A DNA stretch of 64,000 nt from Chiloscyllium plagiosum (Eukaryota), in assembly GCF_004010195.1 (NCBI RefSeq), contig NC_057719.1, positions 45,147,971 through 45,211,970 of the forward strand. The letters run 5' to 3'. Positions within the stretch are counted from its first letter, which is position 1. Each line of letters opens with the position of its first letter. This document shows positions 1 through 32,789 of the stretch, in pieces. A program made the position numbers and the translations under genes. The notes beneath the pieces were generated by a model. That model did not search any database. It worked only from the letters and a program-made list of their open reading frames with translations, and was not told the origin of the DNA.

Positions 1-876
1 TCTGCCCTCAGACCCCACCCCTCCAACCGTAACAAGGACAGAATGCCCCTGGTGCTCACCTTCCACCCTACCAACCTTCGCATAAACCAAATCATCTGCC
101 GACATTTCCACCACCACCCAAAAGACCCCACCACCAGGGATATATTTACCTCCCCACCCCTTTCCGCCTTCCGCAAAGACTGTTCCCTCCGTGACTATCT
201 GGTCATGTCGACGCCTCCCTATAACCCACCCTCCCATCCTGCAACCGCAGGAACTGTAAAACCTGCGCCCACACCTCCTCCCTCACCTCCATCCAAGGCT
301 CTAAAGAAGCCATCCACATCAATCAAAGTTTTATCTGCACATCTACTAATATCATTTATTGTATCCGTTGCTCCCGATGCGGTCTCCTCTACATTGGGGA
401 GACTGGAAGCCTCCCAGCAGAGCACTTTAGGGAACATCTCCGAGACACCCGCACCAATCAACCACACCGCCCTGTGGCCCAACATTTCAACTCCCCCTCC
501 CATTCTGCCGAGGACATGGAGTTCCTGGGCCTCCTTCATCGCCGCTCCCTCACCACCAGACGCCTGGAGGAAGAACGCCTCATCTTCTGCCTCGGAACAC
601 TTCAACCCCAGGGCATCAATGTGGACTGCAACAGTTTCCTCATTTTCCCTTCCTCCACCTCACCCTAGTTCCAAACTTCCAGCTCAGCACTGCCCCCGTG
701 ACTTGTCCTACCTGCCTATCTTCTTTTCCACCCATCCACTCCACCCTCCTCCCTGACCTATCACCTTCATCCCCTCCCCCACTCACCTATTGTACTCGAT
801 GCTACTTTCTCCCCACCCCCACCCTCTTCCAGCTTATCTCTCCACGCTTCAGGCTCTCTGCCTTTATTCCTGATGT
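1..876 (+). mobile_element. Penelope-like retroelement, 3' fragment (GIY-YIG endonuclease C-terminus and pyrimidine-rich tail), frameshifted
   Basis: ORF pieces PLVLTFHPTN and VAQHFNSPSHS...LEEERLIFCLGTLQPQGINVD match the Penelope linker and GIY-YIG end. The fragment stops at ...ATTCCTGATG, the start of the hammerhead-bearing terminus. Confidence 0.85.
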
Positions 877-1527
877 GTAATCTAGCTGCTTAAACATTAA
901 TGCAAAAGCATGAAAGCTGAAGGTACTGGAATCTGATATGTAATTCTTGTGTCAGTTACAGCATGTTTGTACAGTTTCTTTGTCTACTAATTTTAACCTA
1001 AGATCATTTAAAGAACTAGTAATAACTTTGTTTTCAAGTCAGGGCATTCCATACTGCCGCCCTATAAATATAAATATTTTTGAAATATAATCAGAAGCCA
1101 CAGGCAGGTTGTGAGAAGGAAAGTCCCCGTAAATAGTAATGAGGCAAATAGGCAAACACAACTGTCTTTATGATGTTGGATGAGGAATAAACCTTGATTA
1201 AAACTTTTTCAAACAGTACCAAGCTTCCTTTGACTCGACGTAGACAGTGAAAACTTGATTTAACATTTTATCTGATAAATGACACCCTGGGTGCAGCACC
1301 CCTTCATTACTGCTCCAAAAAATGATTCTGGATTCTATGCGCAAATGTTTGGAGTGGTGCTTCTAAGAGGCAAATTGTTGTTGCTGAGTCAAGGTGTTCT
1401 GTATGAATGTCACTGATTTCCCGCTATAGCAACAATTTTTAAAGGTATGGCTATGGCATTCTCTGGTGGAAAAACTAGCACCTGACTCTGTTTGACTTTT
1501 TTCTTTTCCTTGCAGGTGATCATTTAA

Positions 1528-1710
<183 letters not shown>

Positions 1711-3560
1711 AGTCTCACACAGCCTGAAAATCAGGCTGTTCTGAACAATGATGTTGAATTTTACCAATGTGGACACCTTTATGTCCACAGAATTTTTAGC
1801 AAAGCCTGGAAGCTACAGGGATGTGCATGTTTAAAGAATCTTGTCAGCTTATTGGGAATGGAAGCAGAAGACCTACCTTGTGAAAATAGAGATTCTAAAA
1901 CAGCTTAGAATGAAACAGTGTAGAGATGTGTAACAATTTTGCTCTTGCAAAAACCATAAATTATGTTTGATAGTTTAATGTCTAAAGTATGACAGTTGTT
2001 CTAAGAAAGGTAAATACTGAGGAAAATGTATAATTTTATTGGAATGATAATTGTTCTTCAAAATAATTTTAATTTAAGTGGCAAAGTATACAAATAAGAT
2101 AGATTACTGTGGTGTTGTACCTTAACATTTGGTTATGTGCTTTTTGCATTAGAGTAGCACAATGATATGCTGGACTTTGCTTTGAGAGCTGATTTTCAAG
2201 GAAGAGAAATGTTACTAACAAGCATTTTGGCAAATGGAGTGTCATTTGTAAAACATCAAAGCTGGCAGCTTGTGTATTTTCTTAAAATCTTAGTGCTCCT
2301 CCAACATTTGTGTATAGTTGCTTATAGTTTCTGCTAGTACAAGTAACACATGCTATTTAGTGATCCTAATATTTGTGATAGCAACAAAAGAATTGCATGG
2401 AAGTGTTCCAGCCATTCCCCTTTTAATTGATTTTAGTTTAGATGATCGAAAATGATGCAATGTAAATATATAGAATACAAGGTTTTAATTTCAAATTCTA
2501 ACTGTTAATGAAGCACAGCCTATTTCTTAACAGCCCTGTTCTCTCACTAATGCTTGTGAACACTATAAGAAATATGTGTCATTAAACCATTTATATAAAC
2601 TGTTTATACCAAATTAAACATTGTAATATAACAGATGTTTTACTGGAAGTAAAACTTGCATGCAAACAATAGTACATAGACATACATGACAATGTTTGAA
2701 AAGCAAGATCAATTGTCAATAAGTAGCTTTGTATACAAGGAACTGAAAAAAAGACTAGATGACAAAATTTTCTATTTGTTCATAAGTTTAACACAATCAA
2801 ACAATTTTAAAACCAAAAGAATTCATCCCTTAATACAATCTTTGTTTTTTTTTAACCTGGCTAAAACAGCAGTAAAGTTTATTGGACAGTGTAATGCGCA
2901 GATGAACAAACAGGTCTCAACTTCTGTGAATAATCAGATAATTTTACCTCCGACTGTTTCACCGCCTTTTAGCAAACCTTTTTGATATTTTCAGATATGT
3001 ATTTTTACTCAATTGCTAACTTTCTTAGATCTGCATGTACTAACATCTGCCATTACACTGTCAAAACAAGCCCGCTGCTTCATTTCCAGTTTAAATCAAA
3101 GGAGTGATTTATCATAGTATTAGACCCGCATTAGCACAGAAAAGTCAGAATTATCATTGAACAAACTGATACATTAACCAAAGCAACTACATTGAAAACA
3201 TTACAAACTAAGAAAGACTGACATGTATGACTATGGCTTTTTGAGTCTAATTTTTCTCTAAATTGTGTTCATGGCAGCAGTGAGTTGTAGTGCCTAAATG
3301 AATCTACAGGAATGCTATATCTGATAGTGAGAATAAAAGGGATGTGTGAATTTTCTTAAACTGAGTGCATTGTAAAAATGTGTATTGTATTTCTGGTTGT
3401 ATACCCTTGTTAGCTTTGTATAGGGAAACTTGAACAAAGTCTGATGTATTGCACATTTTCATGCCATGTGAACAATGTATCAGTTTTAAATAAAATCTTC
3501 AGAACATTTCACTTACATGCATTTTGAACTGTATTATGAATGATATACTTCATTAATAAA
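1711..3560 (+). other. GNG2: GNG2 3'UTR with candidate polyadenylation signals
   Basis: AT-rich sequence without obvious repeats after the stop codon; AATAAA at 3332-3337, 3489-3494 and 3555-3560. Confidence 0.55.
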
Positions 3561-3669
3561 TGCACTATTAAGGGGGAAGATTAGAAATGGTGCTATTCCT
3601 CAAGACATTCATACTACCGTGTTAAAAATCTCACACCAGGTTATAGTCCAACAGGTTTAATTGGAAGCA

Positions 3670-3704
3670 CACGAGCTTTCAGAGCGCCGCTCCTTCGTCA
3701 GGTA
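3670..3704 (-). ncRNA. Hammerhead ribozyme copy in the inverted pseudo-LTR
   Basis: Minus strand reads TAC-CTGACGA-A-GGAGC-GGC-GCTCT-GAAA-GCTC-GTG. Confidence 0.7.
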
Positions 3705-6125
3705 ATAGTGGAGGACACCGTTGTAAGGCACAGAATTTATAGCAAGAATTTACAGTGTGATGTAACTGAAATTATAGATTAAAAAATACCTTGATTGACT
3801 GTTGAGTCTTTAATCTGTTCGAATAACATGATAGTTTCACTGCTTTCATGTGTAAATCACAAAACCCTTTTTTAAAAGTTGCATTCTCAGGTTAGCTGTG
3901 ACAATTCATGTTAGCTAAACAATATTTTAAAGGTGTTAGCCCCCTGTGTTCTCTGTCTATGCCATGATGTTTAGATTGTTTCTAATCTAAAAAGTGAGAT
4001 AACAAAGTTTTACATGAATTCATGCAGTTTTTGAGCAAAGTCCAATGTAACTCTGCAAGTACAAATTATGTTGAAGGCATCTTGAAACCTATTGTACAGG
4101 GGATCCCCAACTTCTGTCGTGACACTACGGATTTCTTACAGAAACTCAGCACACACAGACCAGTCGAACCGGGAACATTGCTCGTCACAATGGATGTTTC
4201 CGCACTCTACACCAGCATCCCCCACAATTATGGCATCACTGCAACAGCCTCAGTACTAAACACCAACAACTGCCAATCTCCAAACACCATCCTACAAGCA
4301 GCTCGCTACGAACAATGATTTGTTTGAGGTTTGATGGTTGTTTAAAGGCAAGCAGTGGAGGTGTGGGGAAGGTCTTCCACCCAAAACTCATCTGCTTTAT
4401 CCTCGATCACAACACCTTCACCTTTGACAACCAGTTCTTCATCCAGACACATGGAACAGCCATGGGGACCAGATTTGCACCCCAATATGCCAACATTTTT
4501 ATGCACAGGTTCGAACAAGATCTCTTTATGCAGGATCTCCAACCAACATTATTCACCAGGGACATTGACGACATTTTCTTCCTCTGGACCCATGGCGAGG
4601 AGTCACTGATAAAACTACACCATGATATCAACAAGTTTCATCCCACCATCAAACTCACCATGGGTTACTCTCGACTATCTGTCTCATTCTTGAACTCATA
4701 CATCTCCATCAAGGATGGACACCTCAGCACCACACTCTACCGCAAACCCATAGACAACCTCACAATGCTACACTTCTCCAGCTTCCACCCAAAACGTATT
4801 AAAACAGCCATTCCCTATGGACAAGCCTTACGCGTACACCAGATCTACTCAGATGAGGAGGAACGTGACGGGCACCTGGAAGTACTCAGGGATACCCTCA
4901 CAAGAATGGGGTACGATGCTCAACGCATCGACCGCCAGTTCTGATGTGCCACAGCAAGGAACCGTAATGACCTCCTCAGGAGACAGACACATGCTGCAAC
5001 TGACAGGGTACCCTTCGTTGTTCAGTACTTCCCAGGAGCTGACAAACTATGCCGTGTTCTTCATGACCTGCAACACATTATCAATGAGGATGAGCACCTC
5101 ACCAAGACCTTCCCCACACCTCCACTGCTTGCCTTTAAACAACCATCAAACCTCAAACAAATCATTGTTCGTAGCGAGCTGCTCGGCTCTCAGGACAACT
5201 CCGTACAACCCTGTCATGGTAGGCGCTGCAAGTCATGTCAGAGTGTGAACATGGATACCACCATTACACGTGGGGACAGCTCCCACCTTGTACATGGCAG
5301 GTACTCATGTGACTCAGCCAACNNNNNNNNNNNNNNNNNNNNNNNNNNNNNNNNNNNNNNNNNNNNNNNNNNNNNNNNNNNNNNNNNNNNNNNNNNNNNN
5401 NNNNNNNNNNNNNNNNNNNNNNNNNNNNNNNNNNNNNNNNNNNNNNNNNNNNNNNNNNNNNNNNNNNNNNNNNNNNNNNNNNNNNNNNNNNNNNNNNNNN
5501 NNNNNNNNNNNNNNNNNNNNNNNNNNNNNNNNNNNNNNNNNNNNNNNNNNNNNNNNNNNNNNNNNNNNNNNNNNNNNNNNNNNNNNNNNNNNNNNNNNNN
5601 NNNNNNNNNNNNNNNNNNNNNNNNNNNNNNNNNNNNNNNNNNNNNNNNNNNNNNNNNNNNNNNNNNNNNNNNNNNNNNNNNNNNNNNNNNNNNNNNNNNN
5701 NNNNNNNNNNNNNNNNNNNNNNNNNNNNNNNNNNNNNNNNNNNNNNNNNNNNNNNNNNNNNNNNNNNNNNNNNNNNNNNNNNNNNNNNNNNNNNNNNNNN
5801 NNNNNNNNNNNNNNNNNNNNNNNNNNNNNNNNNNNNNNNNNNNNNNNNNNNNNNNNNNNNNNNNNNNNNNNNNNNNNNNNNNNNNNNNNNNNNNNNNNNN
5901 NNNNNNNNNNNNNNNNNNNNNNNNNNNNNNNNNNNNNNNNNNNNNNNNNNNNNNNNNNNNNNNNNNNNTGTGTGTGTGTGTGTGTGTGTAGGAGTATCTG
6001 TGTGTATGTATAGTGCAATGGTGGTCACCGAGCAGAGGCTGATAGCTAAGTTCGGTACCCATAGGGAGGGCCTCAACCGGGACTTTGGGTTCATGTCATA
6101 TTACAGGTGACCACCATTGCACTAT

Positions 6126-6353
6126 ACACACACGCAGATACTCCTACACACACACACACACACACACAGGCACTCCTATACACACATACGCACGGACACA
6201 CATACACACAGACGTGCATACTGACACCCACACACATGCACCCCCTCACAAACGTAAGACACTCTACACTCCACTACATACACACACACATACACTCTCT
6301 CACACTCACAACCCCCAACATAGACAGACACAAAGACCCACATACACACACAC
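6126..6353. repeat. Imperfect (CA)n-rich tract inside the Penelope 3' region
   Basis: Visible CA/ACAT runs. Confidence 0.85.
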
Positions 6354-6713
6354 ATTTTGTGGGGTGAATTTGTACTTTGTACTTTGCTCAAAAACTGCAT
6401 GAATTCATGTAAAACTTTGTTATCTCACTTTTTAGATTAGAATTAATCTAAACATCATGGCATAGACAGGGAACACAGGGGACTAACACCTTTAACATAT
6501 TGTCTAGCTAACATTAATTGTTACAGCTAACCTGAGAATGTAACTTTTAAAAAAGGGTTTCGTGATTTACGCATGGAAGAAGTGAAACTATCGTGGTATT
6601 CAAACAGATGAAAGACTCAACAGACAATCAAGGTATTTTTTAATCTATAATTTCAGTTACGTCACACATTAAATTCTTGCTTTACTGTGCCTTACAATTG
6701 TGTCCTCCACCAT

Positions 6714-6748
6714 CACCTGATGAAGGAGCGGCGCTCCGAAAGCTAGTG
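6714..6748 (+). ncRNA. Minimal type I hammerhead ribozyme in Penelope pseudo-LTR
   Basis: CAC-CTGATGA-A-GGAGC-GGC-GCTCC-GAAA-GCTA-GTG: full core, perfect stem II, palindromic AGCT stem III, CAC/GTG stem I. Confidence 0.75.
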
Positions 6749-6899
6749 TGCTTTCCAATTAAACCTTTCCAATTGGACTATAACCTGGTGTTGTATGATT
6801 TTTAACTTTGTACACCCCAATCCAAAACTGGCATCTCCAAATCATTCATACTACCATGAACTTGTGTAACAATTTATTACCTGCTGTCTGTCCAAGATT

Positions 6900-7440
6900 T
6901 TTTTAAAAAAATCCCAAGGTGTGTGTGTGGCTAGCATTTTTTTTTCTTTGAGAGGGTGGTAGTGAGCTGCCTCCTTGAACTGCTGCTGTTCCTTGGGGAT
7001 TACTCAAATCCACAATGCAGTTATCAAGGGAGTCCCAGGATTTTGACCCAGTGACAGAATGACAGCAATATAAATCCAAAGCAGGATGGTGTTTGAATTG
7101 AAGGGGAAGTAGCAGGTGATGGTGTTCCAATGCATCTGCTGTTCTAGTCCTCTGAGGTTGCAGAGATTGCTGGTTTGCAAGATGCTCTTACAGGAGTCTG
7201 AGTGAGATACTGCAATCCATCTTGTAAATATTATACATTAAGGCTACTTTACATCAGTGGTGAAGGGACTAAATGTGAAAGGATACCAGTCAAGTGCGAT
7301 GCTTTGTTCTAAATGGTGTCAAGCTGCTTCATTGATGTTTGAACTGCACTCATTCAAACAAATATTCCATCATGATTTGTGCCTTGCAGATGGTGGACAG
7401 GCAATAGGGATTCATGGAGTTGCACAGCACAAAACAGACC
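6900..7440 (-). mobile_element. Degenerate 3' part of a CR1/L2-group LINE (further remnants ~8305-8520 and ~9620-9825)
   Basis: Minus-strand remnants such as SKSWDSL...IVD...AVQGGSSLPP resemble LINE ORF2 C-termini; heavily decayed. Confidence 0.45.
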
Positions 7441-7995
7441 CTCAGTCTAGCTTGTTTGCGCTGAGCAGATATCTTAAACTGATCTAGTCCCAATTGCCAG
7501 CATTTGGCCAAACTCCCTTCCAATTCATATACTCATCCAGATGCCTTTGAAATGTTGTAATTGTACCAGCCTTCCACTTACTCTGGTAGCTCATTCCATA
7601 CACGCACCACCCTCCATGTGAAAATGTTACCCTTCGGGTCCCTTTTGAATCTCTCCCCTCTCCCCTTAAACTTATACCCTTTAGTTTTGGACTCCCCTAC
7701 TCTGGGAGGAAAAAGACCTTGGCTATTCACCCTATCAATACGTCATGATTTTATAAACCTATATAAGATCACCCCTGATCCTCTGACACTCCAGGGGAAA
7801 AAACCCCCAGTTTCTCCCTATAGCTCAAACCCTCCAATCCTGGCAACATCCAAGTAATTCTTTTCTGAACCCTTTCAAGTTTAACAACATGTTTCCTATA
7901 ATAGGGAGACCAGAATTGAACACCGTATTCAAAAGGTGGTCTCACCAATGTCCTATACAGTCGCAACATGTGTTCCAACTCCTATATTCAATGCA
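7440..7995 (-). mobile_element. CR1/HER1 LINE 3' fragment
   Basis: MLRLYRTLVRPPFEYGVQFWSPYYRKHVVKLERVQKR, a typical CR1 ORF2 C-terminus, plus 3' tail. Confidence 0.9.
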
Positions 7996-8089
7996 TGAAT
8001 CACGAGTCAGAAGTATTTAAATTGTTGGTTTGGTTCAATTACTGGCCTATAGTAATGTCCGTGATGTTGATAGTGGGCATAAATACTAA

Positions 8090-8305
8090 ACAAAACTGAA
8101 ACAACTGTGGATACTGTACATCAGAAACAAAAACAGAAATCGCTAGAAAAGCTTAGCAGGTCGAGCAGCAGCTGTGGAGACAAATCAGAGTTGATGTTTT
8201 GGGTTGAGTGACCCTTCCTCAGAGGAACCCAAAACATCAACTGTGACTTCTCTCCACAGATGCTGCCAGACCTGCTGAGCTTTTCCAGTAATTTGTTTTT
8301 GTTGT
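8090..8305. mobile_element. Inverted dimer of short Penelope-derived terminal element
   Basis: ...GAAAAGCTTAGCAGGTC...TGTGGAGA is mirrored by TCTCCACAGATGCTGCCAGACCTGCTGAGCTTTTC; the arms meet near a degenerate hammerhead core at ~8200-8235. Confidence 0.65.
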
Positions 8306-9380
8306 TGATTGTGGGAGATTCAGTGAAGGCTGTGCCACTGAATGCCAACGGACGATGGTCAGATTCTGTCTTGTTGGAGGTGTTTATTGCTGGTAGCTTG
8401 TGTGGCACAACCGCCATTCATCAGCTCCTGTTGGATGTTGCATATTGACACAAGACGCTTCAGTATCTGAGGGATCGCAAATGGTGCTGAACATTGTGCA
8501 ATCATCAGTGAAGATCCCCAGTTTTTTAAAACATTTATTCATAAGGGCGTCACTGGCTAGGCCAGCAGTTATTGTCTGTCTCTAATTGCTCAGAGGGCAG
8601 TTAAGAGTCCAGTGACCCTTCTTCAGAACATTTTGATACGGAGGTCACTGAAACCGAAAGTTTGACTCTGCTTTCTCTCCACAGATGATGCCAGACCTGT
8701 TGAGATTCTCCAGCAATTTTTGTCTGACACACATAAAGACAAAAAAATGGTCCTCTCAGTGGTGGGAAAATAAATTCCTGGGAAACGCTTCAAATGCTCC
8801 AGTCCTCAACATTCAATGGAATGTTTCTTTTGTTTCCCAATTGTTCAGTCCTCTGATCATTTCCATCAGGTTCTTTCACTTCGTCACAGAATAACTGGTT
8901 CATGAATTACAAAAACTGTCTTATTGGGTAAAAGCAGCAGCTTCCATCAACTTGTAGGAGAAAATAAACTGTCTTTCTCCAGGCTTCAGGTATTTTACTG
9001 GAGAGACACGCCATCTGTTTTTTCAATAGTCTGAAGGTTTCTGCCAGTATCATTCACACCCACAAGCTGTTTGGTTACCCAGTAGCCAATGAGAGAGTTG
9101 TTGTCAGGCTGATAGTCTTTGGCATCCACAACTGGTCACAAAGTCACAACCAATCAGCAATCTTTCGCCAGCCAAATCTCACATTGTACACAGACCCCTG
9201 AGCTACACCATCCACAAACATCATCTCATGCTGCTTGAATGAAGCAGCAGTGTAAACACAATGAATTTCAGAAACTCTTTTCAAAACAGAAACAACTTTT
9301 TAAAAAGGTAGAAATTCCTTTTTCAGTCTTTTGTTGCAAAACTGGCCTTATCCCCAATTCAGTTGACAGTCAAAATTACA

Positions 9381-9513
9381 TTCCTGATGAAGGGCTCCTG
9401 CCCGAAACGTTGATTCTCCTGTTCCTCAGAGGCTGCATGACCTGTTGTGCTTTTCCAGCACCACACACTTTCGACTCTGATCTCCAGCATCTGCAGTCCT
9501 CACTTTTTCCTAA
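9381..9513 (+). mobile_element. Short non-autonomous Penelope-derived element with hammerhead core
   Basis: Starts TTCCTGATGAAGGGCTCCTGCCCGAAACGTT; exact 11-bp TSD TCAAAATTACA at 9370-9380 and 9514-9524. Confidence 0.8.
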
Positions 9514-9825
9514 TCAAAATTACAGTAAATTGTAAAGATACAACCTTTACAAGTGTCAGTAACCAGAGTATTGTTAAGCAAACGTTTGTCAACAAGTCCT
9601 TCCATCACATCTCTAATGACTGATAGGATGGTAGTTGAGTGTGCTGGATTTGTCCTGTTTTTTGTGGACTAGTCATACCCAGATAATTTTCCATATTGCC
9701 AAGTAGATGTCAGTGTTGTAGTTGTACTGAAATAGTTTGGCTAGGGGTATAGCTAGTTTACAGTTGTTGTCGCTGGCAATCATTCCCTAACAAGTATAAT
9801 TGTCTGCCTGGGAAATCCCTTGTCA

Positions 9826-10356
9826 CTGGTCTCCTTCCTATCAGAAAGATGTTGTGAAACTTGAAAGGGTTCAGAAAAGATTTACAAGGATGTTGCCAAG
9901 GTTGGAAGGCTTGAGCCATAGAGAGAGGCTGAATAGGCTAGGGCTGTTTTCCCTGGAGCATTGGAGACTGAGGAGTGATCTAATAGAAGTATATAAAATC
10001 ATGAGGACATGGATAGGATAAATAGACAAGGTCTTTTCCCTGGGGTGGGGGAGTCCAAAGCTCGAGGGCATAGGCTTAGGCTGAGAGGGGAACGATATAA
10101 AAGGGACCTAAGGAGCTACTTTTTCACACAGAGGGTGGTATGTGTATGGAATGAGCTGCCAGCGGAAGTGGTGGAGGCTGTTACAACTAAAGCATTTAAA
10201 AGGCGTCTGGATGGGGATATGAATAAGAAGGGTTTAGAGGCATATGGGCCAAGTGCTGGCAAGCGGGACTAGATTGGGTTGGGATATCTGGTTGGCATGG
10301 ACGAGTTGGACTGAAGGGTCTGTTTCCATGCTGTACATCTCTACGACGCTATGACA
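9826..10356 (+). mobile_element. CR1/HER1 LINE 3' fragment
   Basis: WSPSYQKDVVKLERVQKRFTRMLP...FFTQRVVCVWNELP and the 3' tail CTGTACATCTCTACGAC. Confidence 0.9.
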
Positions 10357-10987
10357 CTGGTCATGGATTCTTTGGGTCCTTGTATGGTTGATGAGCCTGA
10401 TCCTAGAGCTACACCTCTGACTACTCATTTGGCAGGTGTTTTCGGAAGGTGGAATTGGTCCTTAGCCTCGTGATTGCTGGCATTCCTTTCTCTGGTTTCT
10501 TTTCCATACCTCTTCTTGCTGATGTGTGTTCTTGATGAATTGTCTCCCTTCATATTCAGAGGCATCTCAGACCACTGCAGTATATCACAAGATAATCTGA
10601 TGAATTTTGTCTGCCAGTTTAGCCATTATTTGTCGGAGTCAGATTGAGACCAAGTTGTTAGATTATTTCATTGATAAGTAGTGTGAACAACTGATGTACT
10701 TTGTGGGACTGCCCTGTAATTTTATATTTTCTCATGTTCCAATTCAGACCCAAGCCAGTTTGAGATGCATACCAAAATATCTTTCCTATTTTTAAATCAA
10801 CCTGTTTAAATAAGTTTTGAAACACCTCCATGGCTAGTGTAAGTTGAACTCAGTCCTGGTCAAGGGATAAGACACTACCAGTGTGCCACAATAGGCACAA
10901 ATCAGGGAGCATGAGAAACACAGTCAGCAGGAGAGTAAACTATATGACTGTTATGGATTTTAGAAAAAAAAACATCACCTTAACTAC

Positions 10988-11236
10988 TGGTGGCATGGTG
11001 GCTCAGTGGTTAGCACTGCTGCCTCACAACACCAGGTTTGATTCTAGCTTCGGGCAACTCTGTGTGGAATTTGCACATTCTCCTTGTGTATGCATGGGTT
11101 TCCTCCCACAATCCAAAGATGTCCAGGTCAGGTGAATTGGCCGTTCTAAAATGTCCATAGTATTAGGTGCATTAGTCAGAAGGGGTGGGTTACTCTTCAG
11201 AGGGTCGCTATGGACTTGTAGGGAATCTAATCTCTA
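10988..11236 (+). mobile_element. HE1-type V-SINE (degenerate)
   Basis: tRNA-like head GGTGGCTCAGTGGTTAGCACTGCTGCCTCAC, V-domain TGTGTGGAATTTGCACATTCTCC, AATCT tail. Confidence 0.85.
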
Positions 11237-14200
11237 CTCAGCCATAACTATAAAATACTTTTTTTCTGGTCAGCTACTTTCCACACATCAGTCTTACCTG
11301 ATTCCACTTCATTTATTTTCTTGTTTATTTCTATCCAGAGAATGCTTTTATGCCCCACTGATTTCTTAAAAAAAACATATCCCCATGATTTTCACTTTAT
11401 ATCGATCCTGTCAGTCAATTAATTAATGAATTAATCCCAATCTCCTTACTTGTTACGTGAACAGATCTCTTTTTCAATAAAATTTGTGAAGACATGCAAA
11501 CAGTCCTTGATCATAACTAATGGAAAGATTTTTTCATATTCCATACAATACTGTCAACTTCCCATGTTCTCCCTTTTTATGGCATGTCACAAAAGTATCC
11601 AAAAACAAAATTGATTTATTTTTTTCATTTTGTTGTAACTCCTCATGCAACCAGGATTCCCTCTTCAAGGACTTTCATCGATTTCGTGGAGAAAACACCT
11701 TCATTTGTGAAACAGTCTAATTACTGCAATTGCATTATTTCATTTTATTTTGGAAATTTATTTTCTTTCAAGCATTTCCTTATGTCAGCAATGCAAATTC
11801 ACAAACTTTTCTCAGCAATAGCCTTTGTCAAATATACATTATCCCAAGAGATCTGTTTTCCACATTACATTGTATTAGCAAACGTTTTCTCAGATTGCTC
11901 CTTGTGTATGATTTCCTTAAAGAATATTCAATATTCCTGTGTCTATAGCACTAATGTTTCATTGGTTTAAGTTCTTTGCAGCTGAATTAGTAGTTTACCA
12001 CAACTATAATATTCTACTGGGAATCACCATTCTTCTTTTGTGATATCAATCACAGTTCCCCAAACCTGAGGCAGGCAAATCTCTTAAATTCCTTAATCTT
12101 ATAATGCCCCTTACTAGGTAACCTTTTAATGAATCGATTCCAACACTGTGGATCTGCATTCATTGTCCAACACAATGCAATTGGATGAAGCTGTAACTAA
12201 AAATTACTGGGCTGAAGCCTTTCCCTACAAAGTCCTCTGTCTGTTCAGTAGCACCTCTTCTTCAGAATGTTCCATGTCAAACTAATTTTGAAAATGTTAT
12301 TATTCCATTTAGAATAACTCATAGTATAATTGTCCTTCAATTTGCTTCTAAAGCATCTGTTGACCATATCCCAAACATTCCTGCAGTTAATTCTTCTGTT
12401 ACAATTCTCCAGTACCTGCTGTCTGTTATAATTGCCAGCAGTATCTTTATCCTCACTCCTTTTAGTAACAATGTTTTAATGCTTTCAACGTGTATGTTGG
12501 TGACTTCACGTTGTTGCTACCATTCAATTCTCCATTCTTTGCATTACTTCTGAATGTCCCTTTGAAACATGAAGACCACTAGGAGATAATGTCTTCCCGG
12601 GAACCTAATAAGTCCTCTGACATCTATTCCAAAGCATATTTCTTTCTGAAACGTTAACTTCAGTTAATACTAGCTCGCATCCAACAACAAATTCAGAGAG
12701 GCGAGATCAAAATGTGTGTCTTGTGGCACACATAGAGATGACGGAGAGAAGCTGTTAAGTGGGTGAGGAACTGTAGGAGATTTGGAAAGTTAGGCTGCTG
12801 AGTGAGCGCAGTGGTGCATCTTAGTTTTAGGGCTTTTGGAACAGCCTGCTATACTCATTTTATGGAGAGTGGGTTTGTATTCTGGAAATACACAACTGCT
12901 TGTTAATATCTGAAAAAGTAATTCCCTTTGGAGAAAGAACTTGATCATGGATAGAAATATAAGTAATTTTGTTAAGATGAAGGTTGTGCTAACAAGAAAA
13001 CGGAAACTTATGGTGGAAAGGGGAAAAAAATGTCCTAAGATGCCACATTCTGTCTGTTTTTCCTGTATGTTTCAAAAACCTGAAATGAGTTACAATCCAC
13101 TGGAGGAACATAGATCTTTGAAATGTGGATCTAGGATGTTTGCCCGAATTCCATAGAGAGACCATAGACACATTAAAAAGTACTGGAAATCACAAGAGCA
13201 AAAAGAACTTTTAAAATGTGACAACCAGAAAATATTAGTACTTCAGTCATTTAATCAGAGATGAAAAGAGATCATGGCCATCAGCAGAAGCAGGGGGGAG
13301 TCAGATGTTGGATGTCACAGAGTGGCTTCAGATGAGCAAAAGTAGATGTGAATTGTTGTATGTGCCAAACATTACCAGCTTATGACTGGGGTAGTTTGCT
13401 GTCAACAGCCTCCTTGGGGGTTGAAGAATCTACCTGCTTTCCAGTTGTAGAGGAAAATTGCTTAATGAAAAGTTCTTATCATAAACAAGACAGAGTTTAT
13501 TACACAACAGCAATTGGGTGCAAGTTAGATATTGTTATTAATTGCAGATGTAGGTCTTTAAACAAAAAGTTCCCAAAATGTTCTCCCTTTCCCCACGTAA
13601 ATCTTAAGACTTCATCAGATTGGGTGGAGCTAAATGCAGTCTCCAGCATTGATCCTTTCAGAACTATTACCTCACACAACATAAATGAGCTACAGTAGAT
13701 GTGTGAGGATGGCACAAAATAGATGAGTCTGACAAATTTCTGAGGGTAGATCTCCTGGTAGCTATAAGCAGCTGCAGGTCTTAAAGTCCTTTGGTGGCTC
13801 AAAGAATCAAGTTTGATGGCAAGCAGTTTAATAAACTGGCAAAGAAGTAAATCAAAATATCTGCAGAGTGAATGTAGCATAAGAGGAGACTTCTTCTCAG
13901 ATGAAACCATAGGGATTCTCTTGATCCAGAGTGAAGTCAGGAAATGTAGTGAGGGCCTTCATCAGGAATTAACACCACAGAGTTCCAAGAAAGCATGATA
14001 AAAATAAAATGAATTTTGGACTACTGTTCGTGGAACCTCGACCATTCCATACACATTTAGAACAATGTTGCAAAATGATGCTTGGAATGTACATTTCCAA
14101 GTCCCTTTCCCTCTCCTAAAGAACTGTCAGTAGTTTAGAAAATGGCTTACAAGCTTGATTGCTCAAGACCTGAGTAGACAGAAAAGGCTAGAACCTACAG

Positions 14201-17949: not shown

Positions 17950-18405
17950 CAACCTCATTTTTCACTTCGGAACTCTACATCCTTTTGGACTCATTATTGA
18001 ATTCACCAATTTTAGAGTTTGAGAAATCTTCTCCCATGTCCTTACCTCAACCACCCACACATCAGATCTTGTTATCACAAGGTCAGCTATTACACATAAC
18101 ACATTATTAGCTACTAATTATCCCTATCGGTAGCTAATCATTCTCCCAGGCTGATCGTTATCCAGTTCTCTGTCTGTCCAACTGTTCTCTCTCTTTGGGT
18201 ACTATCTCCAACTCATGTTTACTCTTTACCTCCTCCACCCTCCCTTACATTTTCCTAGCTTCCATCAGTTCTAAGGAAGGGTCACTGGACCCAAAAGGTT
18301 AATTATGATTTCTCTCCAAAAATGTTGCTAGGTCTGCTGAGCTTTTCCTACAATTTTTGTTTTTGGTTCTTACTTTCAGTGTCCATAGTTCTTATGTTTT
18401 TATTT
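17950..18405 (+). mobile_element. Old Penelope 3' remnant with degenerate hammerhead terminus
   Basis: LIFHFGTLHPFGLIIEFTNF-like peptide near 17950-18020; CTAAGGAAGGGTCACTGGACCCAAAAG at ~18271-18298. Confidence 0.55.
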
Positions 18406-18857
18406 AGAATTTTCATGCTTGTCTTCAAATCCACCCACAGCCAGGCCTCATCTTAACCGTGGAACCTCTTTCAGCCCAAAACTCCCTGATTTTAATTCAC
18501 TCAATGCTTTTAATTTCTAAGTTTCTCACCTATCTTCTCTGCTTCTTTCTTCCTGCTTTATGTCACACTGTAAAATCAACCTCTTTGACCAAGCTTTGGT
18601 CATTTGTCTTAATATACACTTACGTTACTTGTTGTCAAATCTTGTTTGATAATGTCCCTGTGAAATGGCTTGAGGTGTTTAACTACTTTAAAGAAGCTAT
18701 AGAAATGCAGTTGTTTTTCATTGTTTCATTGTAGTAGAAGCAGGAGTAGGCTATTTGGCCCATCGAACCTGCTCTGCCATTCATTAAGATCATGGCTGAT
18801 CTATCCATCATCTCAGCTCCTCCTACCTGCATTATCCCCATAATTCTTAATGCCCTA

Positions 18858-19555
18858 TGTGGTGTAAAATTATGTCCCAATACATGTGTGAATCATAATG
18901 TAACACATGTATTGGGCCAAGCAGTGGAATGTGGTGAAACGGTTAAAAATTATGTCCCAATACATGTGTGAATCTAACCGGAATGGAGGTGTTGCTTAGT
19001 CCCGTGTGAATCTTATTACACACCTCCCCGTGTGAAGCATAATGTAACACATGTATTGGGCCAAGCAGTGGAATGTGGTGTAAATGTGGTGAAACGGTTA
19101 AAAATTATGTCCCAATACATGTGTGAATCTAACCGGAATGGAGGTGTTGCTTAGTCCCGTGTAATCTTTTTAACACACCTCCCCGTGTGAATCTTCTTAT
19201 CTGTATGTAACCAGAATGGAATGTGTTTTTTAGCCTTGCTCTGCTGTTCACATGAATGTTTATATCTGGAAAAGAGTATATCAGCTGGAAAAGTTTCCAG
19301 TTCGGTGAGTCTGCTCCGGGGTTACGTTTTAACCGCCGAGCGTGGGTTGTTGGCAACCGCTCTACGAGAACTGACGGCTCCCAGTTCCGGTAACATGTAG
19401 AGTGAGTTAAGCCAGACCCGTTGTAAGTATGAGACCTGGTTGTGGCGACGCTGCGGGGAATAAAATGCTCATATTCTAGCAGACTCGCCTCTTGGTCGTT
19501 TGTTCTGTGTCAGACTACTCTCCTACGAACCTGACCTTGAGAATTTTTTAAAACA
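18858..19555 (+). mobile_element. Solo LTR (ERV or other LTR retroelement) inserted into a CR1 3' tail
   Basis: Termini TGT...ACA, exact 5-bp TSD CCCTA (18853-18857, 19556-19560), tandemly repeated U3-like region, AATAAA at ~19459. Confidence 0.85.
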
Positions 19556-19889
19556 CCCTATCATGCAAAAATCCACCCAACTGTGTTTTGAATATATTTA
19601 ATGAAGCTGCCTCCACTATTTCTTTGGGCAAATAATTCCATACATCCATTACCTCTGGGAAAAGCAATTTCTCCTCATCTCTGCCCTAACTCTACTCCCC
19701 CTAATGTTGAGGTCATGTCCCCCAGTCCTAGTCTCATCCACCAGCGGAAACAACTTGGCTGTCTCTATCTTATCTATCCCTTTCATAAATTTATATGTTT
19801 CTATAAATTTTAACACAACTGGAGGAAGCTGATCTTCTCAGATATCATACAGCAGGCCGTGATTTTGTAGCTTGCCTCTTGAATGAAGT

Positions 19890-20112
19890 AGGAGAAAGTG
19901 AGGACAGCAGGTGCTGGAGAGTCAGAGTTGAAAAGCTTGGTGTTGGAAAAAGCACAGCAGGTCAAGCACCACCCAAGAAGCAGAGAAGTCGTCGTTTTGG
20001 GAATTAGCCCTTCATCAGGAATCGTTTCTGATGAAGGACTAATGCCCGAAACATCAATTCTCTTGCTCCTCAGATGCTGCCTGAACTGCTGTGCTTTTTC
20101 CAGTACCATGTT
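19890..20112. mobile_element. Head-to-head dimer of short hammerhead-bearing Penelope-derived elements
   Basis: ...GCCCTTCATCAGGAAT-CG-TTTCTGATGAAGGACTAATGCCCGAAAC...; the flanks are mutually reverse-complementary. Confidence 0.8.
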
Positions 20113-20599
20113 TTATGACTCATGGATGAAGTGACCAGCCTCTGGTTTGTCTGATGACCTTTCCTTCTAAACTCCATAAATGAGGAAAGAAATCCCCAGT
20201 GGAATTTGATCTATTTTAACTGCTGCAACAAAGGTTCAAAAAGTCAGAAATAAAACTTATTGATAACAAATAAGATACTCAATATGCAATACTAAATATG
20301 CAAATATTGAGGTAAATGTAGGAAAATTATTCCCAAAATCAGAATTCCCAAAATCCCTAAACCTCAAAAGTAAATGCCATCCTTGGGAGTACACACTCTT
20401 AGAATTGCAAAATTTAAGCAGCTTAGAGATTCAGTTTTTGGATTGATTTCCCTTAGGTGTTGCCTGAAAGCAGAGCATAGCATGACTGAAATGCATTTGT
20501 GGTTTAGCTCAGTTCATTTAGTCCAACGCTCTCACAAAGTTACAATAATAACCATATTGAAATGAACTATAGTCATAAGATTTTAAATGTATAATTGTA

Positions 20600-22015
20600 A
20601 CACAATGAAGTAATCAAAAAGATTGATGTGGGCAGAGTGGCAGATGTTGTTTACTTGGACTTTAGTAAAGCCTTTGACAAGGTTCCACACTGTAATCTAA
20701 TCAGCAAAGTTAGATCACATGGGACAGTAAGGACTGCAGATGTTGGAAGCCAGAGTTAATAGATGTGAATTTGGAAAAGCACAGCAGAATTTGGAAAAGC
20801 AGCATCCGAGGAGCAGAAAAGTCCTAACAAAGGGTTTCAGCCTAAAACGTTGACTTTCCAGGTTCTCGGATGCTGTCTGATCTGCTGTGCTTTTCCAGCT
20901 CTAGATTACTTGAGATTCAGAGCGACTTGCCAATTGAATACAAAATTGACTTAACAACAGAAGACAGACAGTGGTGGTCGAGGATTATTTTTTGGACTGG
21001 AGACCTGGGACCAATGGTGTTCCACAGGGATCATTGCTGGGTCCACTTTTGTTAATCTAAATAATTTGGACGAGAATATAGGAAGCATGGTTAGCAAGTT
21101 TGCAGATGACACCAGAATTGGTGCATAGTAGACGTTGAAGAAGGTTGTCTAAGATTACAAAGAGATCGTAATTCATCGTGTTAATGGGCTGAGGAGTAGC
21201 AGAATTATTTTAATTTGGATAAATGTGAACTATTGCATTTTGGTAATACCACAAGGACAGGACTTATACAATTAATGGTAGGGCCCTGGGTAATATTATA
21301 GAACAGAGTAACCTAGGGGTATAGGTACATAATTCTTTGAAATTTGCACCACAGGTGAAGAGAGTGGTTAAGGTGGTGTTTAGCATGCTTGCCTTCATTG
21401 TCTAGACCTTTGAGCATAGAAGTTGGGACATCATATTGAGGTTATACAGATCATTGGTGAGGCCAGGAGTCATGTGGAGTATTGTGTGCAGTTCTGGTTG
21501 CCATGTTATAGGATGGATATTATTAAACTGGAGAGGGTTCAGAATAAAGGTTGCCAGGATGTTGCCAGGAATGGAGAGTTCAAGTTATAAAAACAGACTG
21601 GAAAAGTTGGGGCTTTTCACTGGTACATAGAAGGTTATGGGGAGACCTTATTGAGGTTTATAAAATCATGAGGGGTATAGAAAAGGTGAATGATAAGGGT
21701 CTTTTCCCTAGGGTGGGGAATTCAAAAGTAGGGGGCATATTTTCAAGTTGAGAGGAGAAAAATTTAAAAAGGTTATTGGGGAAACATTGTTTACATAGAG
21801 AGTGGCACGTGTGTGAAATGGACTATCAGAGAAAGTGATGAATGCAGGCAGAGTTAGAAACTTTAAAAAGATATTTTGGATAAGTTTGTGAGTGGGAAGC
21901 TTTGGGGAGATATGGGCCAACTGTTGGCAGGTGGGATTAGTTTAGTTTGGGAACATGATTGGCGTGGAGTGGTTGGACCAAAGGGTCAGTTTCCATGCTG
22001 TATGCCTCTTTACTA
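20600..22015 (+). mobile_element. CR1 LINE RT/3' region, interrupted by a short Penelope-derived element (~20725-20905)
   Basis: DVVYLDFSKAFDKVPH, SKFADDT and LWGDLIEVYKIMRG motifs; CR1 3' tail. Confidence 0.85.
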
Positions 22016-22024
22016 TAAATTAGA

Positions 22025-23835
22025 CATAGAGTCATAGAGATGTATAGCATGGAAAAAAGACCCTTTGGTCCAACCTGTCCATGCCGACCACATATCCCAA
22101 CCCAATCTAGTCCCACCTGTCAGCACCCGGCCCATAGTCCTCCAAACCCTTCCTATTCATATACCCATCCAAATGCCTTTTAAATGTTGCAATTGTATCA
22201 ACCTTCACCACTTCCTCTGGCAGCTCATTCCATACATGTACCCACCTACTGTGTGAAAAGTTTGCCCCTTAGGTTTCTTTTATATCTTTCTCCTCTCACT
22301 CTAAACCTATGTCCTCTAGTTCTGGACTCCCCCACCTCAGGGAAAAGAGTTTGTCTATTTATCCTATCCATGACGCTCATAATTTTGTAAACCTCTGTAA
22401 GGTCACTCCTCAGCCTCCGACGCTGCAGGGAAAACTGCTCCACCCTGTTCAGCCTCTCCCCATAGCTCAAATCCTCCAAACCAGACAACATCCTTGGAAA
22501 TCTTTTCTGAACCCTTTCAAGTTTCACAACATCTTTCCGATAGGAAGGAGACCAGAATTACACGCAATATTACTACAGTGGCCTAACCAATGTCCTGTAC
22601 AGCCGCAACATGATCTCCCAACTCCTGTACTCCCACAACATGATCTCCTAACTCCTGTACTCAATACACTGACCAATAAAGGAAAGCATACCAAATGCCT
22701 TCTTATCTACCTGTGACTCACTTTCAAGGAGCTATGAACCTGCACTCCAAAGTCTCTTTGTTCAGCAACATTCCCTAGGACCTTACCATTACGTTTATAA
22801 GCCCTGCTAAGATTTGCTTTCCCAAAATGCAGCACCTCGCATTTATCTGAATTAAACTCCATCTGCCACTCCTCAGCCCATTGGCTCATCTGATCAAGAT
22901 CCTGTTGTAATCTGAGGTAACCTTCTTTGCTGTCCACTATACCTCCAATTTTGGTGTCATCTGCAAACTTACTAACTATACCTCTTATGCTCGCATCAAA
23001 ATCATTTATATAAATGACAAAAAGTAGTGGACCCAGCACCGATCCTTGTGGCACTCCACTGGTCACAGGCCTCCAGTCTGAAAAACAACCCTCCACCACC
23101 ACCCTCTGTCTTCTACCTTTGAGCCAGTTCTGNNNNNNNNNNNNNNNNNNNNNNNNNNNNNNNNNNNNNNNNNNNNNNNNNNNNNNNNNNNNNNNNNNNN
23201 NNNNNNNNNNNNNNNNNNNNNNNNNNNNNNNNNNNNNNNNNNNNNNNNNNNNNNNNNNNNNNNNNNNNNNNNNNNNNNNNNNNNNNNNNNNNNNNNNNNN
23301 NNNNNNNNNNNNNNNNNNNNNNNNNNNNNNNNNNNNNNNNNNNNNNNNNNNNNNNNNNNNNNNNNNNNNNNNNNNNNNNNNNNNNNNNNNNNNNNNNNNN
23401 NNNNNNNNNNNNNNNNNNNNNNNNNNNNNNNNNNNNNNNNGTGTCCTTACCACCCTTCTCAAACAATGGCACCACATTAGCCAACCTCCAGTCTTCCAGC
23501 ACTTCACCTGTGACTATCGATGATACAAATCTCTCAGCAAGAGGCCCAGCAATCACTTCCCTAGCTTCCCACAGAGTTCTAGGGTACACCTGATCAGGTC
23601 CTGGGGTTTTATCCACCTTTATGCGTTTCAAGATATCCAGCACTTCCTCCTCTGTAATACAGACATTTTTCAAGGTGTTAACATCTATTTCCCTACATTC
23701 TATATCTTCCATATCCTTTTCCACAGTAAATACTGATGCAAAATACTTTAGTATCCCCCCATTTTCTGTAGTTCCACACAAAGGCCACCTTGCTGATCTT
23801 TGAGGGGACCTGTTCTCTCCCTAGTTACCCTTTTG
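22025..23835 (-). mobile_element. CR1/HER1 LINE ORF2 fragment (contains N gap)
   Basis: WRPVTSGVPQGSVLGPLLFVIYIND...SKFADDTK; PGPDQVYPRTLWE. Confidence 0.92.
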
Positions 23836-23886
23836 TAGTTTATCCACCTGCTCTCTTTGTTGGCTTTTGTGTTCGTGTGACATCTG

Positions 23887-23995
23887 GATTAGAGTGGTGC
23901 TGGAAAAGCATGGATGCTGCCTGAACTGCTGTGCTTTTCCAGCACCACTCTAATCCAGAATCTGGTTTCCAGCATCTGCAGTCATTTTTACCTTG
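23887..23995. mobile_element. Palindromic short Penelope-derived element
   Basis: GATTAGAGTGGTGCTGGAAAAGCA...TGCTTTTCCAGCACCACTCTAATC; 12-bp TSD GTGTGACATCTG at 23875-23886 and 23996-24007. Confidence 0.8.
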
Positions 23996-24233
23996 GTGTG
24001 ACATCTGTCTCTAAAACTTCACTGCTTTATTTCAGTGTATCTGATTCTTACTTCAGTGTATTTGATTTCATCATTGTTCCATTACTCCTCTGTTACATGT
24101 TTATGTCGTGTACGTTGTATGAGTAGAAAATGTCTTTGTTTGCAACACAGGGAAGCTCTGAAGATTGACGGATTCCAAAGTGTCTTTTTCTCTGCATCTA
24201 TTTGCAGTTCATCTGTCAGTTGCTTCAAATAAC

Positions 24234-24534
24234 AGATAGGGTAAATAGACAAGGCCTTTTCCCCGGGGTTGGTGAAGTCCTGAACGAGAGGGTACAGGTT
24301 TACGGTGAGAGGGGAAAGATTTAAAAGTGACCCAAGGGCAGTTTTTTTCACACAGGGGGTGATGCGTGTATGGAATGAGCTGCCAGAGGAAGTGGTGGAG
24401 GCTGGTACAATTACAACATTTAGAAAGCATCTGGATATCAATAGGAAGGGTTCAGGGGGATATGGGCCAAGTGCTGGCAAATGGGATTAGATTAATTTAG
24501 GATAGGTCAGGATGAACGAGCTGGACTGAAGGGA
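24234..24534 (+). mobile_element. CR1 3' fragment
   Basis: FFTQGVMRVWNELPEEVVEAGTITTFRKHLD. Confidence 0.88.
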
Positions 24535-24559
24535 TGAATTGGATTAACACAGAGATATC

Positions 24560-24955
24560 TCATTTTATTACTTTTGAAAATATACTTTACTTATAAAAAC
24601 GATCTACAAATAATCCAAAAGGTCCTAAAACAGTTCTGTGTAGTTTTTGCAGAGAAAAAGACACTTTGAAATCCGTCAATCTTCAGAGCTTCCCTGTGTT
24701 GCAAAACAAAGACATTTTATACTCATGCAGGAATCTATTTACTTTCACTGTGAGGCAATGAGGGGGTCCGACAACTGAAAAGACTCTTGTTTATATTTTG
24801 GCAGAAAGACCTTGGTTGGTGGTCTTTCCCCATTTGTGCCTTCACAGCTGACCCAACCTTTAGTGTGTCCCTCAGCGCATAGTTCTGGACCTTGAATGTG
24901 ACAGTCTGCAACAAGCAGTTGAGGGCAACTCTTTATACTGGAAGACCAACAAGCT
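24560..24955 (-). mobile_element. Probable Tx1/L1-group LINE 3' end
   Basis: Minus-strand remnant LLVFQYKEL...CCRL...VQNYALRDTLKVG followed by an AT-rich tail; family assigned from memory. Confidence 0.4.
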
Positions 24956-25540
24956 GAGATATCTCATAAATCCACAGATTCTAAATTACTTGGAATGAGG
25001 TCTCAGTGTGAGCCTGACAAGAGGAGAATCTACATTTAATAGAGACTGACCACTTTGGATGATTTTATGGTTACTGGTTAATAATTTATTTTAGCATTTT
25101 AATGCAAAATGTTCCTTTTTTTATTGATTAGCATAACAGAACAGTATTTTTAGTAAATTATTTTCTTTTCTCAACCTGTTATATATGTAATCTTTTTTCA
25201 AAATGACTGTAAATTTGTGCCTATTTTACATCATAAAAATGGATACCTATACATTAACTCATTAAGCGTAACAATTTTTTGAGTGAGCCATTAATTTGTC
25301 TCTTAAATTCACAGGTCAAAATGAATTTTAAGACCTAGAGTGGCATAAAACCAAAACGTTATAAGATCACTTAAAATCTTTTCTTTCTCTCATTAAAAGG
25401 AAATGTGGAAAACTAGAGAGAGAACTGGAAGTGGTCCTCCACAGGTCCCACAGATGTAGGAAGAAGTGATAGGAACATTAGCATGTCGTTTTTTTTCATC
25501 CATTGGAAAATGAGACATCCCAGACAACTTCTTCCTTCTT

Positions 25541-25857
25541 GGGTGGCACGGTGGCACAGTGGTTAGCACTGCTGCCTCACAGCGCCTGAGACCCAGGTTC
25601 AATTCCCGCCTCAGGCGACTGACTGTGTGGAGTTTGCACGTTCTCCCCGTGTCTGCGTGGGTTTCCTCCGGGTGCTCTGGTTTCCTCCCACAGTCCAAAG
25701 ATGTGCAGGTCAGGTGAATTGGCCGTGATAAATTGCCCGTAGTATTAGGTAAGGGGTAAATGTAGGGGTATGGGTGGGTTGCGCTTCGGCGGGGCGGTGT
25801 GGACTTGTTGGGCCGAAGGGCCTATTTCCACACTGTAACTAATCTAATCTAATCTAA
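25541..25857 (+). mobile_element. HE1-type V-SINE, full length
   Basis: A/B-box tRNA head, V-domain, CR1-type tail GGGCCGAAGGGCCTATTTCCACACTGTAA and (AATCT)n. Confidence 0.92.
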
Positions 25858-27179
25858 ACTGGCAAATGGTGAATTTGGTAATCCAATAGAGGCGATAGAA
25901 AGAGCCAAGGGCGGTGTACATAGTGGGAGTATTGGCGAAAGTTGATAAAGTCCTGCAGTGGAAGTAATTCCCACTGCAGCGAAAGGACAAAAAAGGTTTC
26001 AGTGAAGAAATTTGGTATAGTTCAATTATGTGGGCAGCAAGGAGTGGACTGGGGAAAAGGGGAAGCGAGCGAGGGAACATTCGATTACAACATTAAGCAT
26101 TGACAAAGAGAATCGTACATCCTCTTTTCCATCGTCCAATTTACAAGAAATAACTCATTAAGCAGAAAAACTGTGCCGGGAACAAGGATTCTTTTTTCTC
26201 CCGAAAATGTAACACCACCTCAGTTAATAATTCCTGTTGTAAACCTGAGAAGTTATCGTGAAAAATCCAAAATCGTAACCTAAAATCAATGGTAAGTAAA
26301 ATTTTTAAATAGTCGAGAAAAAAATGTTCGCCACAAACAAGGCATTGGGGAGGGGAGTACTGTATAGTCGTTTATCGAAGTATTGTTTTAAAATATTGGA
26401 AGTCAATATGGTGATATTGCATTACAAAAATTAAATTATCAATTTATCTCAATTTTCTAAGAAAAAAATTGGGAGTTAGGGTTAACCTTTATCTAAACTC
26501 TTACTGCGGTAAAAATAAAGTCCAGCAGATGCTGGACATTCATAACACAAACGAGCTTCTGCAGAAACTGGGCAGGTTTAGCAGTATTTGTGGAGATAGG
26601 AACACAGTTAACATTTCGATTCCGATATGACAGCTCCTAGATGCCATATTGGATTCAAAAGACTAAACATCTTTCACGATGTGGTATTATTATCAAGCGA
26701 ATGAGAAGGTGGCTTTGAAAAATATTCTAGGAGATTACATCACTTCATCTCAATTTCCACTACTCCGCCCTCATCCCTGTCAATCATCACAATGGGTTTT
26801 TGCGGGACTAGTCACCGGAATCACTTCAAATATTCCATATCGATATTCTCACCCAAAACAGAAATTGCTGGAGAGAGTCAGCAGGATTGGACGGCAGCGT
26901 GTGGAGATGGAGAACTGTCGAAGAAGGGTCACTGGAGCCGAAGTGTTAACTCTGTTTCACTCTCTTCAAAGGCCTAAGGGGTTTCTCCAGCAATTTCTGT
27001 TTTTGTTTGAGATTTCCAGCATCCGCAGTTCATTGTTTTATCATATTCTCACCTATTCTCGAATTAAGACTTTTTTAAAGGTTGGGGGGTAGGTGAGAGC
27101 TGACTCGTACTGGGTGTAGTGAGGTACGTCGAGTGATGTGATCGCTTAATCAATAAAGTTTTGTTGAAACACTCTGGCA

Positions 27180-28871: not shown

Positions 28872-28996
28872 ATGAGACGGAATTTAGAAATTTAATTGTG
28901 TGGCTTGAAGACCAGAAAATACGACATTATAAAATTGAAGAGAGAGGCAACCTGAGAAATGTACACAGCAATGAATGGCCAAAACACTTTGAAAAG
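28872..28996 (+). CDS. RTRAF: RTRAF exon 2: DETEFRNLIVWLEDQKIRHYKIEERGNLRNVHSNEWPKHFEK
   Basis: AG/GTGAG boundaries; 125 nt; conserved WLEDQKIRHYKIE. Confidence 0.96.
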
Positions 28997-32680: not shown

Positions 32681-32789
32681 TATATAATTCATCCATTTAT
32701 TTGATGGAGTTCCTTCAGGCATTTAACAACTGTAAAGGTGTTGATGAAATGAAATTTGTTATAGAAATGCCTCAGTGAATTTATGGACT

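Follow-up and report, generated by a model that had tools for sequence, protein, structure and literature searches.

The two hammerhead motifs considered here are very probably explained by one old insertion of a Penelope-like element (PLE) of Neptune type downstream of a G-protein gamma subunit gene; they lie in the pseudo-LTRs (pLTRs) of the element and would be passive relics at this locus. The gene, which we take to be GNG2, and the element both lie in the 64 kb stretch of Chiloscyllium plagiosum DNA that was analysed (the window), and their coordinates are listed in Table 1. The motif is real and of a known kind, its carrier is dead, and there is no evidence of local function.

The right motif (plus strand) reads CAC CUGAUGA A GGAGC GGC GCUCC GAAA GCU A GUG and the left one (minus strand) UAC CUGACGA A GGAGC GGC GCUCU GAAA GCU C GUG, the same sequences as had been given in the initial annotation. 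The left copy differs from the right by four changes (U at the end of stem I, C as N7, U at 11.1, and C as H17). The core boxes CUGANGA and GAAA are present in both, together with U16.1 and H17, the latter being A6745 (CUA) in the right motif and C3673 (CUC) in the left. Helix I, of 3 bp, closes both motifs as type I, by CAC/GUG in the right copy and by UAC/GUG with a U.G pair in the left. The whole of stem III consists of the palindrome AGCU (A15.1-G-C-U16.1), and an extra A stands between A9 and G10.1 (A6724 in the right copy and its counterpart in the left); both peculiarities, already described in the initial annotation, were read in the two copies. With its palindromic 15.2-16.2, helix III is too short in either copy for closing as a monomer. 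The right motif lies inside the pLTR, ~600 nt 3' of the ORF stop and 100 nt short of the element end.

A strict descriptor, consisting of the core, a 4-bp stem II, and a 3-bp stem I, has three matches in the window (both motifs and one at 15290), compared with 0.005 on average and never more than 1 in each of 200 dinucleotide shuffles, which places the motifs above chance. A loose core pattern has 10 matches against 3.0 expected. In Rfam, a scan of 1-12000 at E ≤ 10 returned 10 weak matches, of which none is to a hammerhead model. Because these minimal motifs are without stem III, the Rfam result is no evidence against hammerheads. That both motifs are minimal type I hammerheads of the PLE kind, carried in the pLTRs of an element from a shark, is supported.

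Minimal hammerheads of this class were described by Cervera and De la Pena in 2014 (PMC4209133). In the available parts of that paper, they have in common with the present motifs the type I form, the CUGANGA and GAAA boxes, the pLTR location, an additional nucleotide separating 9 from 10.1, G10.1 paired with C11.1, a palindrome at 15.2-16.2 that has no loop 3, and the 3-bp helix I; the GCU stem III recurs in a turtle representative, and in a Xenopus representative H17 is A and is followed by AAUAAA, comparable to A6745 and the polyA signal here. The same parts report them from Neptune elements of fishes, also as opposite-strand pairs, and chondrichthyans are missing both from the 56 representatives aligned there and from Table S1. 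The present locus adds a shark example to the class. Stem II is nearly palindromic here (6 bp around one G), unlike in the published minimal hammerheads so far as these are given in the available text, and an intermolecular duplex is predicted to be favoured. For the near-perfect palindrome at 6725-6737, the predicted homodimer has -32.0 kcal/mol, compared with -18.2 kcal/mol for two monomers; dimers might, on this prediction, form via stem II as well as via stem III.

Both copies had been called intact. The word fits the right copy, in which all consensus positions are kept, including G10.1-C11.1, and in which the predicted pairing of the 35-mer is ~0.85 for stem I and ~1.0 for stem II, but not the left copy, in which position 11.1 is U, the G10.1-C11.1 pair of stem II has been lost to G.U, and the predicted fold is poor (~0.1 or below for stem I and ~0.3 for stem II). 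According to the available text and supplement of PMC4209133, this closing pair of helix II is a >80% consensus in PLE minimal hammerheads, and G.U at 10.1-11.1 is found in several published PLE representatives; in view of the latter, it is not certain that the left copy is dead. The change from C to U at 11.1 would be the usual CpG-type decay. Of the 12 distinct motifs in the window that have no more than one mismatch in the core, seven are without the C11.1-G12 dinucleotide.

The two arms should have been identical at the time of insertion. Substitutions are now found at 27 of 338 positions upstream of the motif (6376-6713), at one of 34 downstream, and at four of 35 inside it. The motif (4/35) does not differ significantly from its flanks (28/372; Fisher p = 0.34, in a test that has low power at 35 nt), and at the flank rate, without selection, the 11 core positions would all still be equal with a probability of 0.42. 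Since the motif drifts at the flank rate, its 'intact' state needs no selection. The motifs show no sign of local selection, by a test that is weak, and they illustrate that an 'intact' 35-nt motif is no sign of function in an insertion decayed by ~4% per arm.

Table 1. Features of the PLE insertion, its hammerhead motifs, and the neighbouring gene (positions within the window).
Feature	Position	Strand	Remarks
Last coding exon, G-protein gamma subunit gene	1582-1710	+	Translates without a stop to the C-terminal CAVL and terminator
Last AATAAA before the insertion	3555-3560	+	Candidate polyA signal; others at 3332 and 3489
Left target-site duplication	3606-3621	+	15/16 identical to 6843-6858; chance ~2e-4 over a 60x60 search space
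Inverted, tail-less copy of 3' pLTR	3622-4076	-	3622-4049 by alignment; limit at ~4076 judged by eye
Left minimal hammerhead motif	3670-3704	-	All core boxes present; wobble pair G10.1.U11.1; N7 = C; H17 = C (3673)
PLE reverse transcriptase (RT) core, thumb, and C-x4-C-x2-C linker	4061-5322	+	5'-truncated; two frames; stop at 4942-4944; catalytic motif altered
Inverted perfect 80-bp copy of 5104-5183	4297-4376	-	Inside RT; misassembly or late templated insert
Assembly gap	5323-5968		Covers most of the expected GIY-YIG endonuclease, GIY-YIG motif included
C-terminal end of endonuclease domain and ORF stop	6024-6110	+	C-termini of P0017 and P0007 match at 67-70%
(CA)-rich 3' untranslated stretch	6111-6372	+	
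3' pLTR	6373-6804	+	Same sense as ORF
Right minimal hammerhead motif	6714-6748	+	Every consensus position satisfied; predicted cleavage after A6745
ATTAAA at polyA-signal position	6758-6763	+	AATAAA in family reads; just 3' of right hammerhead
Tail, ~40 nt	6805-6845	+	Right end only; missing from left arm; family 3' end at 6845
Right target-site duplication	6843-6858	+	First 3 nt shared with element end

The carrier is a single insertion at 3622-6845, bracketed by a target duplication of 15/16 nt. Its arms are inverted repeats (3621-4049 versus 6373-6806) with 89% identity across 438 columns, and its closest proteins come from sharks; the earlier description of inverted pLTRs of a shark PLE is thereby borne out. 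Beyond 6845, 917 contigs of the DNA run X9 pass into unrelated sequence. By tblastn, the RT remnant is 53-55% identical to P0017, a relative of 881 aa, and 73-78% to the shark protein P0007. Of 204 candidates, 73 are relatives of the RT core. Shark proteins rank highest among the single-domain matches, with Chiloscyllium punctatum first (85%), followed by Heptranchias perlo and Scyliorhinus torazame (77-80%), and turtle proteins reach ~48%. A PDB sequence search with the RT core gave no matches. Of five stretches submitted to Pfam, the four near the element yielded no more than an RVT_1 match below threshold (E = 0.025), and the 35-aa end gave nothing.

The ORF remnant starts at about residue 384 of the 881-aa relative, and the coding sequence after the assembly gap corresponds to the last 27 residues of the endonuclease in that relative. 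The remnant is collinear with relatives of 797-882 aa, one of which, P0033, has PF01541. This collinearity points to an EN+ PLE, with a single ORF that would encode RT and, at its C-terminal end, the GIY-YIG endonuclease. The locus also has the layout of an EN+ PLE, namely a pLTR, an inverted 5' copy, a one-sided tail, and a target duplication; 5' inversion and one-sided tail are typical of PLEs (Craig et al. 2021, bioRxiv 10.1101/2021.04.23.441226, in the available text; Arkhipova et al. 2013). The available text of Craig et al. further states that Neptune and Nematis have a CX2-5CxxC zinc-finger linker between RT and endonuclease and that Penelope and Poseidon are without it. As here, Neptune elements are described there with RT, this linker, and GIY-YIG at the C-terminus in that order, with a 5'-truncated inverted copy at the 5' end, and with a one-ended tail of 30-40 bp. 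In the present remnant the C-x4-C-x2-C linker is found at ~5212-5238, and it also occurs in 7/7 relatives inspected. The element is putatively assigned to the Neptune type by linker motif and host group, the linker being one that Nematis has as well.

The element is dead, as judged from its 5' truncation, the in-frame stop, the altered tyrosine position of the RT catalytic motif, and the 80-bp inverted insert. The chance of a 100% inverted copy of 80 bp (4297-4376) at the divergence of the arms is 0.002. Beside the gap, 5969-6029 is a 61-bp inverted copy (97%) of 6106-6166, and is likewise either a misassembly or a late templated insert.

The following course of events would account for the locus. 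Reverse transcription would have produced the 5'-truncated ORF with its 3' pLTR and tail, and an inverted, tail-less copy of the pLTR would have been added at the 5' end within the same target duplication; the structures that these two steps would leave are observed. Each pLTR would bear the minimal type I hammerhead of the family. In live elements, the motif alone would be unable to close stem III, and weak cleavage after N16.2-U16.1-H17 would take place only in a dimer formed through the AGCU palindrome or with the help of the element protein, both points being established for the class and probable for this family. Dimer cleavage of minimal hammerheads has reportedly also been studied by Lunse et al. 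For the class as a whole, the available parts of PMC4209133 and of a review (PMC6765202) state that monomers do not cut and that dimers cut weakly. Both copies here would be passive, drifting at the flank rate (observed, at low power), and their opposite orientation would block, rather than enable, a cis dimer.

The presence of one core on each strand, to which the initial annotation drew attention, stands as an arrangement but not as a functional feature, because it is a by-product of the 5' inversion. The by-product is already in print: the legend of Fig. S4A in the available part of PMC4209133 describes a 5'-truncated PLE with a second minimal hammerhead on the opposite strand at the 5' end, as here. 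Since the cores are on opposite strands, no single RNA has both in sense, and a cis dimer between the left and right copies was rejected as impossible. In a plus-strand RNA that runs across both arms, the right motif is predicted to form a duplex with the antisense arm, at -152 kcal/mol over 100 nt versus -28 kcal/mol for the local fold. It is very unlikely that the two cores constitute a working pair that processes the sense and antisense RNA of the element. All catalytic box positions are kept in both cores, bidirectional transcription has been argued for rotifer PLEs (PMC3846280, in the part available), and partners in trans could be available to the sense RNA as well as to the antisense RNA. 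However, the element is transposition-dead, the inversion accounts for the arrangement, a sense transcript would anneal with an antisense one along 430 nt, the left copy folds poorly, and like opposite-strand pairs occur in the window at 20018/20028, 15290/15516, and 15878/16316.

The minus-strand copy had also been placed ~110 bp past the last polyA signal of GNG2. The distance is correct, as measured from the AATAAA at 3555, but its supposed relevance is lost: GNG2 is on the plus strand, so that the left motif is antisense to it and the 110-nt distance is without catalytic meaning. A link with GNG2 via this copy was therefore rejected. Co-option by the host, in which the right hammerhead and the adjacent polyA signal would end GNG2 read-through RNA that has passed the GNG2 signals, is still less probable than a working pair. 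Although the right motif is complete and sense to GNG2, and a polyA site provided by pLTRs of the family is in use in a related organism (674 reads), the motif is ~3.2 kb beyond the last AATAAA, and a read-through RNA would have the antisense left arm first and would pair with it. Moreover, the left motif is antisense to the gene, there is no excess conservation between the arms, and the element is one among very many copies. Least probable of all is an origin of the inverted left arm as an assembly artefact of the gapped short-read scaffold, for while the assembly gap and two near-perfect internal inversions (4297-4376 and 5969-6029) indicate that the assembly had difficulties here, the arms have diverged at 8% of positions and contain indels, unlike a duplicated read, and the target duplication encloses the whole structure.

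The PLE insertion with passive hammerheads leaves the question of an RNA-processing module, as which the motifs had been interpreted. A part of the motif in RNA processing is probable for the active family; the interpretation does not extend to this locus, where the element is dead and the motifs drift at the flank rate. Even for live PLEs the term is uncertain, because in the one element that has been reconstituted, the Anolis Poseidon element PAc, cleavage by the hammerhead required the PLE protein, and insertion in vitro did not depend on the hammerhead (Frangieh et al. 2024, PMC11167929, in the available text). By the same text, PAc has a minimal hammerhead in the pLTR near the tail, as here, and its RNA-seq is without reads starting or terminating at the cut site, as in the reads of run X21 presented below. 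PAc belongs to another PLE clade, and its activity has been demonstrated, whereas that of the present motif is predicted. Non-LTR retrozymes (Li, Clavereau, and Pollet, bioRxiv 10.64898/2026.07.22.740005) also have type I hammerheads of PLE pLTR origin, and the available text of that work reports hammerhead repeats in one chondrichthyan genome. They are head-to-tail tandem units, whereas an inverted pair flanks an ORF remnant here, and identity with them was rejected because the copies are inverted and 3 kb apart, not tandem. Hammerheads are not mentioned in the killifish Neptune paper, nor is polyadenylation in Schostak 2008 (PMC2377424).

Sequencing runs were aligned to the 481-nt stretch 6370-6850, and the aligned sequences represent related organisms or other copies of the family. 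The number of contigs on this stretch ranges from 18,082 to 37,011 per DNA run (three runs from three organisms), and the family is very abundant. Among 40 of the 193 variant rows from four runs, none falls in the motif (p ~0.05 by position). This hints at conservation at the family level and fits selection in master lineages. The right copy carries the majority letters of the family, which does not thereby demonstrate function at the locus. If transcribed, it could find a partner for trans cleavage in any other of the numerous genomic copies.

From the RNA run X21 of a related organism, of which 2% was sampled, 3331 reads aligned at 80% likeness to any family copy. The reads over the motif are ~7:1 in favour of sense, and 331 run on beyond 6748. 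At ~10 letters past 6766, 674 reads become poly(A), whereas the X4 DNA contigs stay in element sequence there. The pLTRs of the family in this related organism therefore provide a site of polyadenylation ~35 nt beyond the cut. No place in X21 gathers many read ends, and a poly(A) library would keep neither cleavage product well. Uncut RNA of the family exists, and cleavage is compatible with the poly(A) library data.

The DNA runs also bear on where copies begin. The depth climbs 3.2-5.4 fold from 6713 to 6727-6743 in all three DNA runs, 236 X9 contigs have unrelated sequence ahead of 6714, and inverted joints 6714/6773 are found in 11 contigs of X9 and seven of X6. No comparable pile at the cut site is shown in the DNA contigs. 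Two copies of a second family, at 9384 and 53114, show target duplications that end 3 and 0 nt before C3, respectively. An automatic search designed for short copies detected no target duplication for eight of the ten non-focal copies in the window or for either focal motif. Copies thus seem to start at the 5' edge of stem I in preference to the cut site. Such starts could be due to short master elements that begin there or, alternatively, to a transcription start at this place, and alignment clipping at the variants 6711 and 6713 could explain part of them. It is conceivable, though unlikely, that the hammerhead fold in shark PLE families serves mainly as an uncut structural landmark: reverse transcription would start in the tail, cross the intact cut site, and often end at the 5' edge of stem I, yielding hammerhead-headed insertions of 100-130 nt, and the polyA site 35 nt past the cut site would end the RNA. 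The starts at the stem I edge are the sole point here that possibly bears on the role of PLE hammerheads, which could be tested in shark genomes with their very many dated PLE copies.

The window contains 12 minimal-hammerhead motifs of at least three sequence types, several as opposite-strand pairs. Ten of these minimal-hammerhead-like motifs belong to other repeat families, with C3 at 9384, 15290, 15878, 20028, 53114, and 62854 on the plus strand and at 8222, 15516, 16316, and 20018 on the minus strand; those at 20018 and 20028 are arranged head to head. More decayed relatives are found at ~14766, 18270, 20822, and 23913. Upstream of the last GNG2 exon, 1-875 is the 3' part of a second, different PLE with a weak GIY-YIG match (E = 0.0022), which ends inside the first hammerhead box. 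Old repeats include an inverted pair at 7439-7913 and 9826-10317 (inverted pairs 71-85%), and two opposed copies of one repeat form a 75-bp hairpin at 8131-8300.
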